Part shown: positions 19,394-22,494 of the stretch, in pieces
How positions within the stretch are numbered: the first letter of the stretch is position 1
How the letters are laid out: each line of letters starts with the position of its first letter
Source of the DNA: a virus
Virus record (IMG/VR): IMGVR_UViG_3300045988_020036
Location: 1 to 39,938 of that record
DNA length: 39,938 bases
Reading direction: 5' to 3' (one strand)
Position numbers and translations under genes: made by a program
The notes under the pieces: model-generated
The model's input: the letters and a program-made list of their open reading frames with translations, nothing else
What the model was told of the DNA's origin: nothing
The model's database searches: none

Positions 19394-19432
19394 CAAAAAA
19401 TTATCCCCAAGAGGTTGATTTCTTGGGGATAA
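19394..19432 (-). terminator. Intrinsic terminator closing the cargo cluster
   Basis: Minus sense: ttatccccaaga-aatcaacc-tcttggggataa (12-bp perfect stem) followed by tttttt, immediately after the stop at 19436. Confidence 0.85.
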
Positions 19433-19435
19433 TCG

Positions 19436-19762
19436 TTAATCTTCTAGCCGCCGCATGATGGCTTTATACTCTTTGGGGTATATCGCTTTCACGCAGTCCA
19501 TGTGTTCATCCAGCACCTCTAAAAGCCTTTGCAATCCTGCCGCCCTTCCTGCTTGGATAAACTCGCTTCCTCCTGTGTCTATGGGATCAAAAGCCATGGA
19601 ATACAGCTGCATTGGGGCAATGTCCGCAGGGCGGGAGCTTTCCGGGTAAAGGTGATCCAGGATGGTGTAGCATGATGCCATCAGCTGGCACGTTGATGCT
19701 GTAGGGCGTTTTACCGCTTTACATTCCTCGATTGTTTCCAGCAAGTCCCGCTCTGTCAGCAT
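19436..19762 (-). CDS. Cargo gene 7, hypothetical 108-aa protein
   Basis: MLTERDLLETIEECKAVKRP... No motif recognised. Separated by 3 nt from the upstream gene. Confidence 0.6.
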   Translation of the reverse strand: MLTERDLLETIEECKAVKRPTASTCQLMASCYTILDHLYPESSRPADIAPMQLYSMAFDPIDTGGSEFIQAGRAAGLQRLLEVLDEHMDCVKAIYPKEYKAIMRRLED

Positions 19763-19765
19763 CTT

Positions 19766-20155
19766 TTAATCCTCCACGCTCCGCAGGGCTTTTTCCAAAG
19801 CCTCTCTTGTGCGGCTGTCCGGGGCATCATCCATCATGTGCCGCAGTTTTTCTGCCATATCTTCCCTGGCATCAGCACGGCTATATCTGCCCATACTGTC
19901 CCGCTTTCGGCCACGGTAGCTGTTTACATTTCTGTAGTCATCCCGGTAGCCGTAGCCCATGCCGTACCAGTCACCAGCGTTGCTGTAGCTGCCGCCCATC
20001 ATGATCTTGTCCAGATTTTTCAGGGTATGTGTCAGCTTGTCCACGGTTTCCAGCGTTCCGGCAGACAGCTCACCACGTTCAGCGATTTCTTCCAGCTCCC
20101 GGCACAAAACCTCTCGCAGTTCTTCCAAATGTTTCATCTTATTCACCTCCATCAT
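19766..20155 (-). CDS. Cargo gene 6, helical protein with a central Gly/Tyr/Arg-rich low-complexity region
   Basis: KHLEELREVLCRELEEIAERGELSAGTLETVDKLTHTLKNL ... GGSYSNAGDWYGMGYGYRDDYRNVNSYRGRKRDSMGRYSR ... I recall this as a pattern recurring in Firmicutes prophages; function unknown. ATGA overlap with the upstream stop. Confidence 0.6.
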   Translation of the reverse strand: MMEVNKMKHLEELREVLCRELEEIAERGELSAGTLETVDKLTHTLKNLDKIMMGGSYSNAGDWYGMGYGYRDDYRNVNSYRGRKRDSMGRYSRADAREDMAEKLRHMMDDAPDSRTREALEKALRSVED

Positions 20156-20586
20156 GCCACACGCTCGATCATCAGGTTTGCATTGGCAACATCAATCGCT
20201 TCTGCGGAGATGTTGCGAACGGAAAGGGTGGCACAGCAGCCTCTAGGCACATCCACAAAAGCGGAAGTTACCACGTTAAATGCGGCATTTGCCACAGTTG
20301 GCGTTACCGTTGCTGTGGTGGTGGGGATAGCCTCGCCGCCCAAAGACAGGGCAACACTGATAGGCCCTACCGTGCCACCAGTCGGTATCGAAATGTTACC
20401 GAAAAACAGCACCTTATATCTTGCGATAGATGCACAGCCGTTGCAGGGGGATCGAAGCGTTACCAGGCCAGAGCCGTCCCGGTGAACAACATACCCCCGG
20501 TTGCACTTAACCGGCGTATCGGTAAAAAGCACGTTCTGCCCAGCCGCTACAGTCTGGGTAGCGTTTGCAGTAAGTTCAACCGCCAT
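20152..20586 (-). CDS. Cargo gene 5, BclA C-terminal-domain-like (C1q/TNF-like jelly-roll) protein with no collagen stalk
   Basis: 144 aa, beta-rich, ending ...VANANLMIERVA, with an internal RYKVLFFGNISIPTGGTVGPISVALSLGGEAIP. Both resemble the Bacillus exosporium BclA CTD as I recall it. No signal peptide. Confidence 0.55.
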   Translation of the reverse strand: MAVELTANATQTVAAGQNVLFTDTPVKCNRGYVVHRDGSGLVTLRSPCNGCASIARYKVLFFGNISIPTGGTVGPISVALSLGGEAIPTTTATVTPTVANAAFNVVTSAFVDVPRGCCATLSVRNISAEAIDVANANLMIERVA

Positions 20587-20598
20587 GTTCAGCCCTCC

Positions 20599-21393
20599 TT
20601 ATGCCACGTTCCCGCAGCCGCAGCCGTAGTTGTTACCGCAGCAGTTGGGATTCGGAACGACATAAGCCGGTCTTGCAGGGGGGTTGTAATAGGCAAACTG
20701 GTTCTCGACGTAGCCCTTAATGGTAAGGTTTTGGGCATTCTGGCTTGCCGCCAGCTGGGCCATGAAAAGCTGCTGATTCTGGTCAGCAATTTTCTGATCT
20801 TTTGCCGCCAGCTCCTGAGCCGTCAGACGCTGGTCGATGCTGCGGAAACCGCAGTTCATAGCGTCGATGATGTCTCTGGTGGTATTCTGGATGGTGTTCC
20901 GGGTGTCGCAGCTCTGGGTAGCCAAATTGTAGTTCACGCCCTGGATAGCAGCGCGGTTCTCACAGCAGCACTGCTGCTGTGCCATCTGCATCTGGAAAAG
21001 CTGCTGCATCAAGGCAGACTGCTGGTTGCACCGGGAAAGCTCCGCTGCCTGGAAACCGTTGCTGATATTCTGGTTCACGTTTGCAAAACCATTCAGCATA
21101 CCGGTGTTCATGGCATAGAAGCCATCGCAAACGCCGTTGTTTACGCTGTCGATTTTTCGCTCAATGTTGGAAAAATCGGATGCAAGGACATAGCCGTCCA
21201 CAGCACCAGCACCGGAACCACGGCCACCGAAGCCACTGCCCCAGCCGTTGCCGCCCCAGCCAAACAGAACTGCGAACAGGACAATCCAAATGAACCATTC
21301 GCCTCCCCAGCCCATGCCGTTATAGCCGCCGTTGTTACCGTCAGTAACCGCACGGATATCCGCAGGGGTCATCTCACTTGCCGTAATACTCAT
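20599..21393 (-). CDS. Cargo gene 4, Gly/Trp/Asn/Gln/Cys-rich single-pass membrane protein
   Basis: GGYNGMGWGGEW-FIWIVLFAVLFGW-GGNGWGSGFGGRGSGAG, then a Gln-rich coiled region containing CCC, then C-terminal NPNCCGNNYGCGCGNVA. Confidence 0.65.
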   Translation of the reverse strand: MSITASEMTPADIRAVTDGNNGGYNGMGWGGEWFIWIVLFAVLFGWGGNGWGSGFGGRGSGAGAVDGYVLASDFSNIERKIDSVNNGVCDGFYAMNTGMLNGFANVNQNISNGFQAAELSRCNQQSALMQQLFQMQMAQQQCCCENRAAIQGVNYNLATQSCDTRNTIQNTTRDIIDAMNCGFRSIDQRLTAQELAAKDQKIADQNQQLFMAQLAASQNAQNLTIKGYVENQFAYYNPPARPAYVVPNPNCCGNNYGCGCGNVA

Positions 21394-21437
21394 GTGTTTA
21401 TATCCTCCTCATAAATAAAATATTATAACAGCGGCAC

Positions 21438-21656
21438 TTACCGCTTGTTACCGAACCCAAACATCCCCCGGAACTGCTCAAACTGCCCTTGCATCTGCTG
21501 TGCCATTTGCTGTGCCTGGTTAAGCTGCTGCTGGCTCACACGCCCGCTCTGCATCAGCTGATTAAGCAATTGCTGGGGGTCTTGCCCTCGCATCTGCTGC
21601 ATAAACTGCGGGAATTGGGAAATCATCTGCATGGGGTTAGGCATCATCTTTTTCAC
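21438..21656 (-). CDS. Cargo gene 3, 72-aa Gln/Met-rich low-complexity protein
   Basis: MKKMMPNPMQMISQFPQFMQQMRGQDPQQLLNQLMQSGRVSQQQLNQAQQMAQQMQGQFEQF... The start could be one of the internal Met codons (21647 or 21644). Confidence 0.55.
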   Translation of the reverse strand: MKKMMPNPMQMISQFPQFMQQMRGQDPQQLLNQLMQSGRVSQQQLNQAQQMAQQMQGQFEQFRGMFGFGNKR

Positions 21657-22044
21657 CCTCCATCATTTTCTTTAGCTTTTCCTCCACAGCCGCAAGCCGC
21701 TGTTCAAATCCAGCACTCACCGCCTCCGGTGCTGGCCCGGAATCTTTAATTTTGTATTCATACGCAACCAACGGCATGGGTCGCCCGTTCATGTCGGCCC
21801 GTTTCTCATAGAATACCGGCTTGTTGCTGTCCCATAATCTCACAAAGCCATTTGCCGCTACTAAAAACGCCTCTGCCGCAGATTCAGAGGCAACCCAAAT
21901 CCGGTCATCCTGTGGGCTTTGCGGTTGTGCGGCGTTCTGCCCTATGGGCATCTGCTGGGCAGGCGGCTGCATCTGCGGGAAATAGTTTTGCGGATAGTAC
22001 CCGCCGGGTTGATAGATTGGCTGCATATACGGATTTGCCATCAT
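21637..22044 (-). CDS. Cargo gene 2, protein with a Pro/Gln/Tyr-rich N-terminus and a small beta-rich C-domain
   Basis: MMANPYMQPIYQPGGYYPQNYFPQMQPPAQQMPIGQNAAQPQ, then RIWVASESAAEAFLVAANGFVRLWDSNKPVFYEKRADMNGRPMPLVAYEY. ATGA overlap with the upstream stop. Confidence 0.6.
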   Translation of the reverse strand: MMANPYMQPIYQPGGYYPQNYFPQMQPPAQQMPIGQNAAQPQSPQDDRIWVASESAAEAFLVAANGFVRLWDSNKPVFYEKRADMNGRPMPLVAYEYKIKDSGPAPEAVSAGFEQRLAAVEEKLKKMMEGEKDDA

Positions 22045-22421
22045 TCACACCTCCAAAAATAGATAGGGTTTTCGTCCATCGAATTCCATGTATCATATAA
22101 AATGCCGTTATCCACAGCGACAACATGGTTTTTCAGGGCAACTACAAAAATGCCAATTGGATGCTCTCGCAGGAAATCGCCCACGGTGTAACAGTCTGGG
22201 CATTCCTCCGGGATAGATGCCCGCCGAAATCCATGTTTCCGCAGAACCGCACCCCAAACGTTATTCGCACTCGGAAGGTCGCATTGCTCTAGTCCTTCGC
22301 TGGCAAGCTCCACATACGCCTGATACCAGTCTATCCCCAGTGCCTTTGCCACTGCCCGAACGGCACAGTCACCGACTTTTGCCGCCCTTGGATTTGGATT
22401 GAATTCACAAAAACCGGCCAT
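22041..22421 (-). CDS. Cargo gene 1, conserved small protein with a Cys...His...Asp arrangement (papain-like/C39-like peptidase-fold candidate)
   Basis: ATG 22421 follows AAGAGGTG. KVGDCAVRAVAKALGIDW ... KNHVVAVDNGILYDTWNS is a pattern I recognise from many Firmicutes prophages. The catalytic assignment is inference. Confidence 0.6.
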   Translation of the reverse strand: MAGFCEFNPNPRAAKVGDCAVRAVAKALGIDWYQAYVELASEGLEQCDLPSANNVWGAVLRKHGFRRASIPEECPDCYTVGDFLREHPIGIFVVALKNHVVAVDNGILYDTWNSMDENPIYFWRCE

Positions 22422-22451
22422 ACGCACCACCTCTTTCTGCCTTTATGATAC

Positions 22452-22494
22452 AAAAAAACCAGGCGAACGAATCATCATCGTTTCGCCTGGTTTT
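22452..22494 (-). terminator. Strong, potentially bidirectional intrinsic terminator separating the late/lysis operon from the cargo cluster
   Basis: aaaaaaa-ccaggcgaacga-atcatca-tcgtttcgcctgg-tttt: a 12-bp stem with one bulged t. A U-tract is available in both senses (T7 in the minus sense). Confidence 0.85.

Follow-up and report, generated by a model that had tools for sequence, protein, structure and literature searches.

In the phage genome analysed here (IMG/VR record IMGVR_UViG_3300045988_020036; the window is the whole stretch of 39,938 nt), seven genes of the minus strand lie between the lysis cassette and the integrase. Tentatively, the best explanation is that this phage carries its version of a self-contained operon, widespread among phages, that belongs to the lytic cycle (late) and is not occasional lysogenic-conversion cargo. 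The cassette is probably used during the killing cycle.

Seven co-oriented open reading frames, g1 to g7, run along the minus strand from 22421 to 19436, and an independent gene caller applied to the source scaffold gave the same result. Neighbouring genes overlap by 4 nt (g1/g2, ATGA), by 11 nt (g2/g3) and, if the longer start of g6 is used, by 4 nt (g5/g6). The cluster is bracketed by intrinsic terminators on the minus strand at 22452-22497 (-26.7 kcal/mol, z = -8.2) and 19399-19434 (-20.6 kcal/mol, z = -5.5), each followed by a U-run and each more stable than all of 200 shuffles. Both are real hairpins whose stability far exceeds chance expectation; the gene calls and hairpin statistics agree with the preliminary description, which had placed seven co-oriented genes between two strong terminators. 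Terminator-like hairpins recur in related loci: of 138 distinct loci, 50 have one in the 150 nt upstream of the first gene of the module (shuffles predict 5.9), and of 133 distinct loci, 27 have one downstream of the last gene (3.2 in shuffles). The T-run of the upstream terminator merges into a weak TG-TATCAT extended -10-like element ~30 nt 5' of the g1 start. The best promoter-like match of the region (10/12 with TG) is internal, 5' of g4 (21422-21451, minus strand), and consists of GTAACA, an 18-nt spacer carrying the inverted repeat AGCGG N6 CCGCT, and TG-n-TATAAT. In many divergent loci a short palindrome and then a TGn-(G/T)ATAAAT-like element stand ~30-40 nt 5' of the g4 start. Of 124 distinct regions, 98 contain an inverted repeat of 5 bp or more, compared with 52 in shuffles.

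Pfam and gene calls also bore out the described position after a lysis cassette and next to an HTH gene. The cassette (22764-23956, minus strand) comprises a Dp-1 holin (22764-22970; Pfam, 2.8e-29), an 85-aa ORF with a hydrophobic segment (23029-23286) and an endolysin with M15_3 and PG_binding_1 domains (23279-23956). HTH78, a stand-alone HTH protein of 78 aa (22519-22755, minus strand), is encoded between the holin and the upstream terminator and matches Pfam GerE with E=1.8e-4 and 21.5 bits, below the cut-off of 23.5 bits. Homologues were detected at the same position in 17 related loci using tblastn; small ORFs fill the position in L054 and L168, as does a 73-aa ORF without a Pfam match in Butyrivibrio virus Ceridwen. 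On the other side of the cluster, a tyrosine integrase (17847-18947, plus strand) is followed by a putative att core (18977-19003, GGGGTTCGAGTCCCCTCTCTCGCACCA), which resembles the T-arm, acceptor end and CCA of a tRNA and in which neither ARAGORN nor Rfam detected a tRNA, and by a further hairpin (19009-19041). The cluster had been said to abut attP. It does lie near the putative att (~400 nt) and the integrase, but adjacency is only approximate: the core is ~390 nt from the downstream terminator, and an XRE-like ORF of 53 aa (19204-19365, minus strand) intervenes.

No significant match to Pfam, NCBIfam or PADLOC was obtained for any of the seven products, in line with the earlier view that they hold no recognisable virion, replication or regulatory domains. 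PHROGs assigned six of the seven to families, all of unknown function. No signal peptide was apparent on inspection of the N-termini, again as described.

The core protein g4 (20599-21393, minus strand; 264 aa, phrog_16490) had been called a Gly/Trp/Cys-rich membrane protein, and it alone among the seven products has a hydrophobic segment of membrane grade (residues 34-48 by hydropathy), flanked by Gly and Trp. It contains 11 Cys, and its alignment shows a near-invariant CDGFYAMNTGMLNGF, CCC, LAASQxAQN and a C-terminal GCGC tail; we read the N/Q-rich sequence as helical. The family comprises 1374 clusters at 50% identity, every one a stand-alone protein of ~200-300 aa. At least 534 relatives were confirmed in IMG/VR and 82 in genome contigs scanned for g4. 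Relatives also occur in crAss-like, Bacteroides and Clostridium perfringens phages and in T1-like and Seuratvirus coliphages; coliphage DanielBernoulli has a counterpart of four genes (bas08_0027-0030). Beyond Firmicutes phages homology was detected for g4, accompanied by a DUF7841 partner, and not for the other six genes.

For g5 (20152-20586, minus strand; 144 aa, phrog_20016) the AlphaFold2 model (pLDDT 85) confirms a predicted stand-alone jelly roll of BclA/BxpB/TNF type, as first suggested. Foldseek matches in the PDB included the F-BclA CTD 9h38 (E=3.7e-8, TM 0.71), followed by BxpB 8d02, ExsFA 7r1m, BclA 1wck and TNF-family ligands, and BFVD holds many stand-alone jelly rolls of 130-145 aa from uncultured phages. 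A CC pair and the C-terminus NANL..R.A are invariant. The family has 1924 clusters at 90% identity.

The proposal of a small Cys...His...Asp peptidase fold for g1 (22041-22421, minus strand; 126 aa, phrog_3754) gained support, the protein appearing to be a minimal papain-like one. Across 34 diverse orthologues N8, N10, D18, C19, R22, H99 and D110 are invariant, including the triad Cys19-His99-Asp110. The best Foldseek matches of the AlphaFold2 model (pLDDT 93.9) were weak, but all were papain-like: Josephin-2 (E=0.02, prob 0.93), PaTox, M48 USP and Tae4. The family has 1667 clusters at 90% identity. The slot after g6 holds g7 in the order of the window and g1 in permuted loci; in L130 its occupant is an HExxH protein of 105 aa whose SprT-like matches fall below threshold, and a Bacteroides phage cluster ends with a protein annotated in GenBank as 'PolyVal metallopeptidase'.

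g2 (21637-22044, minus strand; 135 aa, phrog_21718) has a disordered head rich in P, Q, Y and M, then a conserved small domain (alignment pattern IWV..E.A...V....V.LWD....Y.K..D..G.P) and a short C-terminal helix; it had no relatives in PDB or Pfam, and adjoins g4 in 153 of the 161 loci of an HMM survey. g3 (21438-21647 or 21656, minus strand; 69-72 aa, phrog_22984) is indeed the Gln/Met-rich peptide described, with 29% Gln and 15% Met. It was detected in 91 of the 161 loci by HMM; Ceridwen has a homologue, and so does the C. perfringens phage CPD1, judging from sequence resemblance. g6 (19766-20137 or 20155, minus strand; 123-129 aa, phrog_28802) shows conservation at both its N- and C-terminal ends in the alignment, with Gly/Tyr/Arg-rich sequence between them, and its positional counterpart carries DUF7841 in some loci (L054, 1.3e-30; cr52_1 gp22, 8.6e-43). 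g7 (19436-19762, minus strand; 108 aa) had no match in family databases and is the least conserved member, detected in 73 of 161 loci, with homologues in Ceridwen (32% identity) and CPD1 (HMM, 2.9e-9).

The seven genes travel together. Within the 161 related loci surveyed, the full g1-g7 order was found in 68, a further 16 had only g7 missing, and ~16 had a permuted order with g1 last; most loci keep the gene order, which holds down to ~30-50% identity. The module moves as a unit between phages that differ in tails, endolysins, holins and integrases. Loci sharing one and the same g5 protein have an identical run of ORF sizes beside Amidase_2 or M15_3 lysins. Their holins belong to different families, their integrases are of the serine or the tyrosine type, and the gene upstream encodes either an ART-PolyVal giant or a Dit/Gp37 tail protein. 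Four loci (L168 and three shorter ones) have a closely related lysin, holin and HTH gene without the seven genes, so the module is dispensable for some relatives.

Several copies point to the lytic cycle. Ceridwen carries all seven genes (32-47% identity) behind an endolysin, a small ORF and a terminator; no integrase is annotated within the stretch examined, only lytic growth has been observed so far, and the host is not known to form spores. In L118 the module sits inside the lysis region, with an XhlA-like gene on one side and the holin and endolysin on the other, and in both L130 and L118 it comes after tail-fibre genes. Recoded contigs (TAG to Gln) of ~150 kb have in-frame TAG in the module and tail-fibre genes and almost none in adjacent DNA-metabolism genes. 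Per 1000 codons, L130 has ~11 in the module, ~7 in the upstream tail-fibre genes and ~0.5 in the neighbouring dUTPase/NrdD block, and the pattern in L135 is similar. According to the literature, recoded stops mark late structural and lysis genes. Against a late lytic role, the window copy stands in the classic moron position, and the strong upstream terminator together with the cassette's own promoter-like elements makes expression in the lysogen possible.

In such a late lytic module, g4 would be a coiled-coil protein that its hydrophobic segment, flanked by Gly and Trp, anchors in the cytoplasmic membrane. Its large Cys- and Gln/Asn-rich domain would probably be cytoplasmic, because every partner is without an export signal. 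The presumably trimeric, TNF-like g5 and the low-complexity g2, g3 and g6 could be recruited by g4 acting as scaffold. One or more of the module's proteins may be processed by a dedicated small peptidase, papain-like g1 here and an HExxH metallopeptidase in the same slot in other lineages. Because the module keeps turning up beside holin, XhlA and endolysin genes, we favour a function at the close of infection, in controlling lysis, disrupting the envelope or release. This is the weakest step of the proposal. The g4 relatives among early-looking genes in CPD1 and in the tail-fibre position of enterobacterial phages indicate that the link to lysis is not universal. In T1-like genomes the g4 relative is, we assume, distant from the lysis cassette.

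Those enterobacterial copies bear on a second reading, which we consider rather unlikely, that the module is a virion-associated accessory set. Here g5 would form a small trimer for receptor binding or decoration, with g4 and the others as fibre-linked assembly factors, or the proteins would be packaged, cut by the peptidase and delivered with the DNA. In T1-like, Seuratvirus and T5-like phages the g4 relative directly follows the lateral tail-fibre gene, but these relatives retain 60-80% identity in 107 of 173 GenBank records from T1-like and Seuratvirus phages, whereas the lateral tail-fibre loci are highly variable according to the BASEL paper. TNF/C1q jelly rolls are frequent at the tips of phage fibres, and Foldseek also matched g5 to the spike knob of phi812 and to numerous collagen/C1q tail-fibre proteins; yet the genes upstream of the lysis cassette are unrelated among the same-g5 loci, which is hard to reconcile with docking on a specific virion partner. 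Small papain-like or metallopeptidase domains serve as processing enzymes of delivered proteins, as in polyvalent phage proteins, and ART-PolyVal giants are encoded near the modules of L169-L171. The position behind tail-fibre genes in L130 and L118 and the shared late-gene recoding would suit a virion protein, but a membrane-grade hydrophobic segment in g4 and three largely low-complexity partners are unusual for siphovirus virion proteins, and in the window the lysis cassette and a strong terminator stand between the module and every structural gene.

It is improbable that the module provides membrane-based protection (superinfection exclusion, protection of the infected cell or counter-defence), with g4 blocking entry or a conserved membrane target and its partners modulating it. 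Exclusion genes often lie beside tail-fibre, lysis or att regions as insulated units with their own promoters, and the terminators and promoter-like elements of the window fit this arrangement. The exchange of the cassette between unrelated phages, the deubiquitinase-type papain folds among the weak g1 matches, and the putative membrane anchoring of g4 would also agree, as would its near-invariant motif of 15 residues, suggestive of a conserved target. However, no PADLOC model matched, and recoding together with late genes argues against expression in the lysogen or early in infection, when exclusion or anti-defence is useful. To our knowledge, six or seven conserved genes in fixed order go far beyond the needs of known exclusion systems.

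Compared with these readings and the late lytic one, least credit is due to the original hypothesis of an independently transcribed moron expressed from the prophage, perhaps under control of the GerE-like HTH protein, in which g1 cross-links or processes proteins resembling those of the coat or exosporium and these reshape the lysogen's spore or cell surface. Its place between lysis cassette and att/integrase, the flanking terminators, the promoter-like elements, the sub-threshold GerE match, the absence from some relatives with the same lysis genes, and Cys-, Gln- and Tyr/Arg-rich products lacking signal peptides, like proteins assembled in the mother-cell cytoplasm, all fit. This functional reading is nevertheless not supported. 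The cassette is not sporadic, is present in Ceridwen, lies inside the lysis region of L118, and is recoded like tail-fibre genes, having TAG codons in frame that would stop translation if the standard code applied; relatives of g4 occur in crAss-like, Bacteroidales and enterobacterial phages, whose hosts never sporulate. No sporulation families were found nearby on large genome contigs, and the few upstream regions read had no evident sporulation-sigma promoter. Although the top structural matches of g5 are the exosporium proteins F-BclA, BxpB, ExsFA and BclA, the TNF-like fold is equally common among phage and giant-virus proteins.

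The seven co-oriented minus-strand ORFs between 22421 and 19436 were recovered by an ORF scan and by an independent gene caller, whose calls came from a public scaffold encoding an identical g4 protein and comprised the same seven genes. In reading order these are g1 (22041-22421), g2 (21637-22044), g3 (21438-21647, or 21656 with the longer start), g4 (20599-21393), g5 (20152-20586), g6 (19766-20137, or 20155) and g7 (19436-19762), all on the minus strand. The ATGA-type overlaps of the preliminary description are borne out, with 4 nt at g1/g2 (ATGA) and at g5/g6 if the longer g6 start is used. 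Both bracketing terminators are likewise real: the upstream hairpin at 22452-22497 (-26.7 kcal/mol, z = -8.2) and the downstream one at 19399-19434 (-20.6 kcal/mol, z = -5.5), both on the minus strand, lie far above chance and each is followed by a U-run. The cluster is preceded by the M15_3 endolysin gene, an ORF of 85 aa containing a hydrophobic segment, the gene for a Dp-1 holin and that for HTH78, a 78-aa protein at 22519-22755 (minus strand). The latter had been described as LuxR-like; its general HTH type stands, while membership of GerE (PF00196) is not established, the score of 21.5 bits being under the Pfam cut-off of 23.5 bits.

Downstream lie a 53-aa XRE-like ORF, GGGGTTCGAGTCCCCTCTCTCGCACCA at 18977-19003 and, on the other strand, a tyrosine integrase. 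Situated 30 nt past the integrase stop, GGGGTTCGAGTCCCCTCTCTCGCACCA resembles the 3' end of a tRNA gene, with T-arm, acceptor end and CCA, and a phage att site is therefore plausible here. A strong hairpin follows the tRNA-like sequence in the minus-strand reading (18977-19041, -21.9 kcal/mol, z = -4.4), and the whole interval would fit an att core by which integration reconstitutes a tRNA gene. Neither ARAGORN nor Rfam calls a tRNA at this fragment, and the Rfam matches there are chance hairpins.

To follow the genes across phages, HMMs were built for the seven proteins with one iteration over 161 loci. At least 534 relatives of g4 were confirmed in IMG/VR, on contigs mostly of 20-45 kb, and genome contigs from gut Clostridia and Bacilli yielded 82. 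The genes do travel together, as the preliminary description had asked: the complete order g1-g2-g3-g4-g5-g6-g7 was found in 68 of the 161 loci and the same order minus g7 in another 16, g2 and g4 were both present in 153, and in about 16 the order was permuted, g1 standing at the 3' end. In most loci the order was held down to approximately 30-50% identity. Loci sharing one g5 protein have an identical run of ORF sizes but differ in their endolysin (Amidase_2 or M15_3), holin (three families), integrase (serine or tyrosine) and genes upstream of the lysis cassette, from which we conclude that the module is exchanged as a unit and is independent of virion, lysin, holin and integrase type. Of 138 distinct loci, 50 have a terminator-like hairpin ahead of the first module gene, where 5.9 would be expected, and 27 of 133 have one after the last, against an expectation of 3.2, so that terminator bracketing is a conserved property.

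The module usually adjoins lysis genes. Holin and endolysin are its neighbours in the window, in Butyrivibrio virus Ceridwen, and in loci L054, L118 and L161-L173; in L130, a recoded contig, it adjoins a membrane ORF that was read as holin-like, with no Pfam match, and in Clostridium perfringens phage CPD1 the module relatives are not adjacent to holin or endolysin. In L118 it is flanked on one side by a tail fibre, an XhlA homologue confirmed by Pfam and two membrane ORFs, and on the other by a putative holin and endolysin. Not every phage with closely related lysin, holin and HTH genes has the module: a few lack all seven genes. One of these (L168, 8277-9795) has the related lysin, hydrophobic ORF, Dp-1-like holin and HTH78, and carries in place of the module ORFs of 152 aa (Gly-rich hydrophobic start, Cys), 114 aa and 105 aa (weak rubrerythrin-like match); the 152-aa ORF was considered as a shortened g4 and rejected (hhalign probability 0.1%). 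Elsewhere, ORFs of 207-264 aa are inserted in the module, between g5 and g6 in Ceridwen (L162, 9521-10315) and between g3 and g4 in CPD1 (L174, 5131-5754). Their resemblance to HNH homing endonucleases was by eye only, Pfam gave no match, and the assignment was dropped.

Putative promoters, -10-like elements identified purely as consensus matches, are located after the upstream terminator and before g4. Upstream of g4 (window 21422-21451) a palindrome is followed by a TGn-(G/T)ATAAAT-type extended -10, and the same arrangement occurs about 30-40 nt before the g4 start in many very divergent loci (L001-L162), with perfect short palindromes such as TCGTGGCCACGA, CTGGCCAG, GTGCGCAC and TACCATGGTA. 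An inverted repeat of at least 5 bp was present upstream of g4 in 98 of 124 distinct regions, compared with 52 in shuffles. The palindrome looks like an operator placed within a promoter spacer, and the cluster may consequently not be one uniformly transcribed operon. About 120 nt before g1, eight loci (L021, L045-L047, L071, L074, L110 and L162) have an apparent small conserved ORF (MYDRLLALGFTEQMAMDILTLFPDPDEL...), which has no counterpart in the window.

Among the module products, g4 is the sole one with a membrane-grade hydrophobic segment (residues 34-48), with Gly/Trp-rich runs on either side. In an alignment of 52 diverse homologues, CDGFYAMNTGMLNGF is nearly invariant, and CCC, LAASQxAQN and a GCGC-type C-terminus are kept. 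It matches phrog_16490 over its full length (E=2.6e-38, residues 13-261) and phrog_9288 weakly. The second product, g2, begins with a P/Q/Y/M-rich head, continues into a small domain that is conserved and ends in a short helix; g3 is 29% Gln and 15% Met; and g6 has conserved N- and C-terminal segments with a Gly/Tyr/Arg-rich stretch between, its positional counterparts in some other loci carrying DUF7841. A reading of g2 as a GerQ-like transglutaminase substrate, suggested by sequence resemblance, was dropped, as no Pfam match supports it. The seven products gave nothing above threshold against Pfam, NCBIfam and PADLOC, and nothing significant was found for g1, g2, g4 and g5 against PDB sequences with single-sequence and profile searches. 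Six of the seven match function-less PHROG families. We found no paper mentioning DUF7841 or treating the gene set as a unit, and our literature searches likewise turned up nothing of relevance on spore-coat modules in prophages, on BclA-like proteins of lysis cassettes or on the virion proteomes of Seuratvirus.

Structures of g1 and g5 were modelled with AF2 from shallower alignments of database matches. The g5 model (pLDDT 85, pTM 0.79) is a TNF/C1q-type jelly roll covering nearly all of its 144 aa, with no collagen-like N-terminal stalk. Foldseek returned matches at prob 1.00 and TM of about 0.7 to 9h38, 8d02, 7r1m and 1wck; the best solved matches were F-BclA, BxpB, ExsFA and BclA, with TNF-family ligands next. 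The BclA-CTD-like fold assigned to g5 in the preliminary description was thus correct, although the g5 sequence itself has no match in Pfam or PDB. The model also matches many stand-alone proteins of 130-145 aa from uncultured siphoviruses, myoviruses and podoviruses, as well as viral collagen/C1q fibre tips, and the predicted fold gives no specific pointer to spores. Kinship of g5 to CotY/ExsY or Ena subunits, suggested by sequence resemblance, was dropped for lack of a supporting Pfam match. In some loci (L054, 6721-7110; CPD1, L174, 6463-6840) the g5 slot holds an unrelated Cys-rich protein of 125-129 aa, which looks beta-rich, has N-terminal CxxC/CC motifs and matches neither Pfam nor PHROG.

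For g1 the model was of higher confidence (pLDDT 94) and the fold matches were weaker. Seven residues (N8, N10, D18, C19, R22, H99, D110) do not vary among 34 orthologues, some as low as 23% identical, and in the model the Cys is at the start of helix 1 and the His and Asp on C-terminal strands; these residues would suit a papain-type Cys-His-Asp centre. The fold matches are consistently papain-like (Josephin-2, PaTox, M48 USP, Tae4), the best at E=0.02 and TM 0.48 and none at or below 0.001, and a profile search against PDB sequences gave nothing. Of the peptidase-fold candidacy proposed for g1, the papain-type residue layout is upheld, the fold evidence is weak and the activity is a predicted one; peptidase, isopeptidase, amidase and transglutaminase are all candidate reaction types. 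Papain-like peptidases are known to process polyvalent phage proteins. The slot after g6 holds g7 in the window order and g1 in permuted loci. In L130 it holds a 105-aa HExxH protein (9729-10046) with sub-threshold SprT-like matches, and in Bacteroides phage C3_41T2LP an annotated PolyVal metallopeptidase closes the cluster (L177, 6386-6850). The module peptidase has apparently been replaced non-orthologously in both, which supports the importance of a peptidase to the module.

Relatives of g4 extend beyond the Firmicutes phages. In the crAss-like phage cr52_1, gp23 belongs to the same PHROG (phrog_16490, 2.3e-48), its block is TAG-recoded, and next to it lie genes for a DUF7841 protein, whose tail is RGG/YR-rich, and for a product annotated LysB/FtsL-like; C3_41T2LP combines a g4-like gene with a DUF7841 gene and the metallopeptidase. 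T1-like and Seuratvirus coliphages carry a remoter relative (phrog_9288; HMM 8.5e-12) after the lateral tail-fibre gene, and T5-like phages have shorter matches after the L-shaped tail-fibre gene; the matching GenBank records number 173 in total. In CPD1, HMMs detect counterparts of g2, g4 and g7, and one ORF resembles g3; the g4 relative lies among early-looking genes. Homology outside Firmicutes phages is shown for g4 only, and the neighbours there count as counterparts by position. In DanielBernoulli (Bas08; bas08_0027-0030, L178), CAjan (gp21-gp24, L180) and L176 the g4 relative heads a row of four small, conserved genes (phrog_9288, 9157, 8329 and 7239) between the lateral tail-fibre gene and convergent early genes, a set that offers a tractable E. 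coli system for the g4 family. The BASEL paper is silent on the gene that GenBank labels 'putative sugar-binding protein'.

The module is not confined to temperate phages. Ceridwen, whose host is not known to form spores, has homologues of all seven genes at 32-47% identity, and, as in the window, they come behind the endolysin gene, from which a small ORF and an annotated terminator separate them. The 18 kb of Ceridwen examined contain no annotated integrase, and its authors described lytic growth only and judged the phage virulent. Three contigs (L130, L135 and L140) of 151-164 kb read TAG as Gln, and their in-frame TAGs align with Gln in the g4, g5 and g2 homologues. Per 1000 codons of L130, in-frame TAG occurs about 11 times in the module, against about 7 for the tail-fibre genes upstream of it and about 0.5 for the adjacent dUTPase/NrdD block, and L135 shows the same pattern. 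Wherever recoding exists, the module is recoded together with late genes. Borges et al. describe recoded stops as marking late structural and lysis genes, and propose that such genes are untranslatable before the code switch. No suppressor tRNA was found in the 13-17 kb analysed per recoded locus. The TAG-recoded contigs also carry NrdD, dUTPase and RuvC-like genes. In two Bacilli-binned loci (L125, L137), in-frame TGA falls opposite Trp where the g4 anchor is aligned, a Trp-rich segment.

We favour an action of the module at the end of infection, in lysis control, envelope disruption or release, because in Firmicutes phages its only persistent linkage is to holin, XhlA and endolysin genes, whatever their type. 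This is the weakest step of the argument, and the position of the T1-like relative beside the lateral tail fibre and of the CPD1 relative among early-looking genes weakens it. Since g4 alone is anchored and its partners all lack export signals, g4 would tether an assembly located in the cytoplasm to the membrane's inner face; this assembly would hold g5, presumably as a trimer, and the low-complexity g2, g3 and g6, and would be matured by the dedicated peptidase. There is a substantial, though less than even, chance that g4, the DUF7841/YR-rich partner, the small beta-rich protein, a coiled-coil partner and the mini-peptidase form an unrecognised late membrane-anchored machine of tailed phages. 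Such a machine would be conserved from Clostridia siphoviruses through crAss-like phages to T1-like and Seuratvirus coliphages, and would perform a lytic-cycle step outside current models of holin, endolysin and spanin, of assembly and of packaging.

The strongest rival to a role at the end of infection is a virion-associated accessory set, which would fit the tail-fibre neighbourhood of the module and its relatives and the frequency of the TNF/C1q-type fold at fibre tips. Against it, the module occurs whatever genes stand upstream of the lysis cassette, and g4 has a membrane anchor and low-complexity partners. In addition, g4 relatives are well conserved across the enterobacterial phage groups, whose lateral tail-fibre loci are highly variable according to the BASEL paper.

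Some weight is kept by the original proposal of cargo expressed in the lysogen that remodels the spore or cell surface, given the moron-like layout in this particular phage, the promoter-like elements at both positions and the lack of the cassette in some relatives. Lysogenic-conversion cargo would be expected to occur sporadically, with no conserved order and in temperate phages only; here the order is conserved in most of the 161 loci, a few phages with related lysis genes lack the module, and it is present in Ceridwen and in the TAG-recoded contigs of about 150 kb. A spore-coat role would predict spore-forming hosts and nearby sporulation genes. The neighbourhood check proposed in the preliminary description came out negative, no sporulation Pfam family being present among 105 neighbouring ORFs on large genome contigs; these ORFs represent phage families (among them holin, amidase, capsid and Rha) and ordinary host genes (such as SmpB, RNase R and NrdD), and g4 relatives occur in Bacteroidales and Enterobacteria phages. 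Inspection by eye of a few stretches ahead of the first module gene showed no sporulation-sigma promoter (-10 CATA...TA). An exclusion or anti-defence system is possible, but PADLOC gave no match, and the gene number and the recoding argue otherwise.

If the module indeed serves the lytic cycle, hundreds of gut phage lineages, including crAss-like phages and BASEL coliphages, share an undescribed multi-protein function built from parts that are odd for phages: a cysteine-cluster protein anchored in the membrane, a jelly roll of TNF type, low-complexity partners of prion-like character and a dedicated mini-peptidase. The families phrog_16490, phrog_9288 and DUF7841 are already catalogued, with no assigned function. 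Homologues are available in cultivable systems (Ceridwen, C. perfringens phages, and the E. coli phages DanielBernoulli and CAjan), which makes the question directly testable. It is this tractability, together with the very wide distribution and odd composition, that makes the module noteworthy, and not the spore idea. For annotation, adjacency to attP and 'hypothetical' products do not make lysogenic-conversion cargo, and a structural match to exosporium proteins implies no spore function.

Compared with known systems, g5 superposes on the exosporium proteins of the Bacillus cereus group (BclA CTD, BxpB/ExsFA, F-BclA) with TM 0.65-0.75 and E 4e-8 to 6e-6, and is near in length to the BxpB/ExsFA chains of 143-156 residues, which are assembled in the cytoplasm without a signal peptide. 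It shares only 12-19% identity with them, lacks the collagen-like stalk, is encoded in phages including those of non-sporulating hosts, and matches TNF ligands and hundreds of viral proteins equally well. With Josephin deubiquitinases and Tae4-type amidases g1 shares the Cys-His-Asp layout, and its sole fold matches are papain-like; in contrast to these enzymes its matches are weak, it has no sequence-family membership and, at 126 aa, it falls short of the 152-293 residues of its best fold matches. The N-terminal anchor, long helical domain and conserved cysteines of g4, as read from its sequence, recall i-spanins (Rz-type) and other single-pass lysis-region proteins, as does the GenBank annotation of its crAss-like neighbours as LysB/FtsL-like, but g4 has neither a sequence relationship to i-spanins nor a lipoprotein partner. 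Most hosts here presumably lack an outer membrane, and we take the CDGFYAMN, CCC and GCGC tail of g4 not to be spanin features.

In layout, the module agrees with morons and lysogenic-conversion cassettes in where it lies in the window, in its flanking terminators and promoter-like elements and in being exchanged between phages. It departs from them in keeping its content and order down to 30-50% identity and in occurring both in lytic and recoded phages and inside the late/lysis region. The late operons of PBSX/SPbeta type in Bacillus contain the lysis accessory genes xepA, xhlA, xhlB and xlyA, that is, extra genes of unclear role between tail-fibre and holin/endolysin genes. Like them, the module includes membrane-associated and beta-rich soluble proteins, and in L118 the XhlA homologue is directly upstream of it. 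Unlike them, it has more genes, a peptidase and low-complexity proteins, and in most loci it lies after the lysis genes and not between; no sequence or fold relationship to XepA was found. Beyond the fold level it has no defining feature of a characterised system: its parts resemble TNF/C1q and papain-like folds, and its layout resembles that of a moron or of PBSX-type late/lysis accessory genes.
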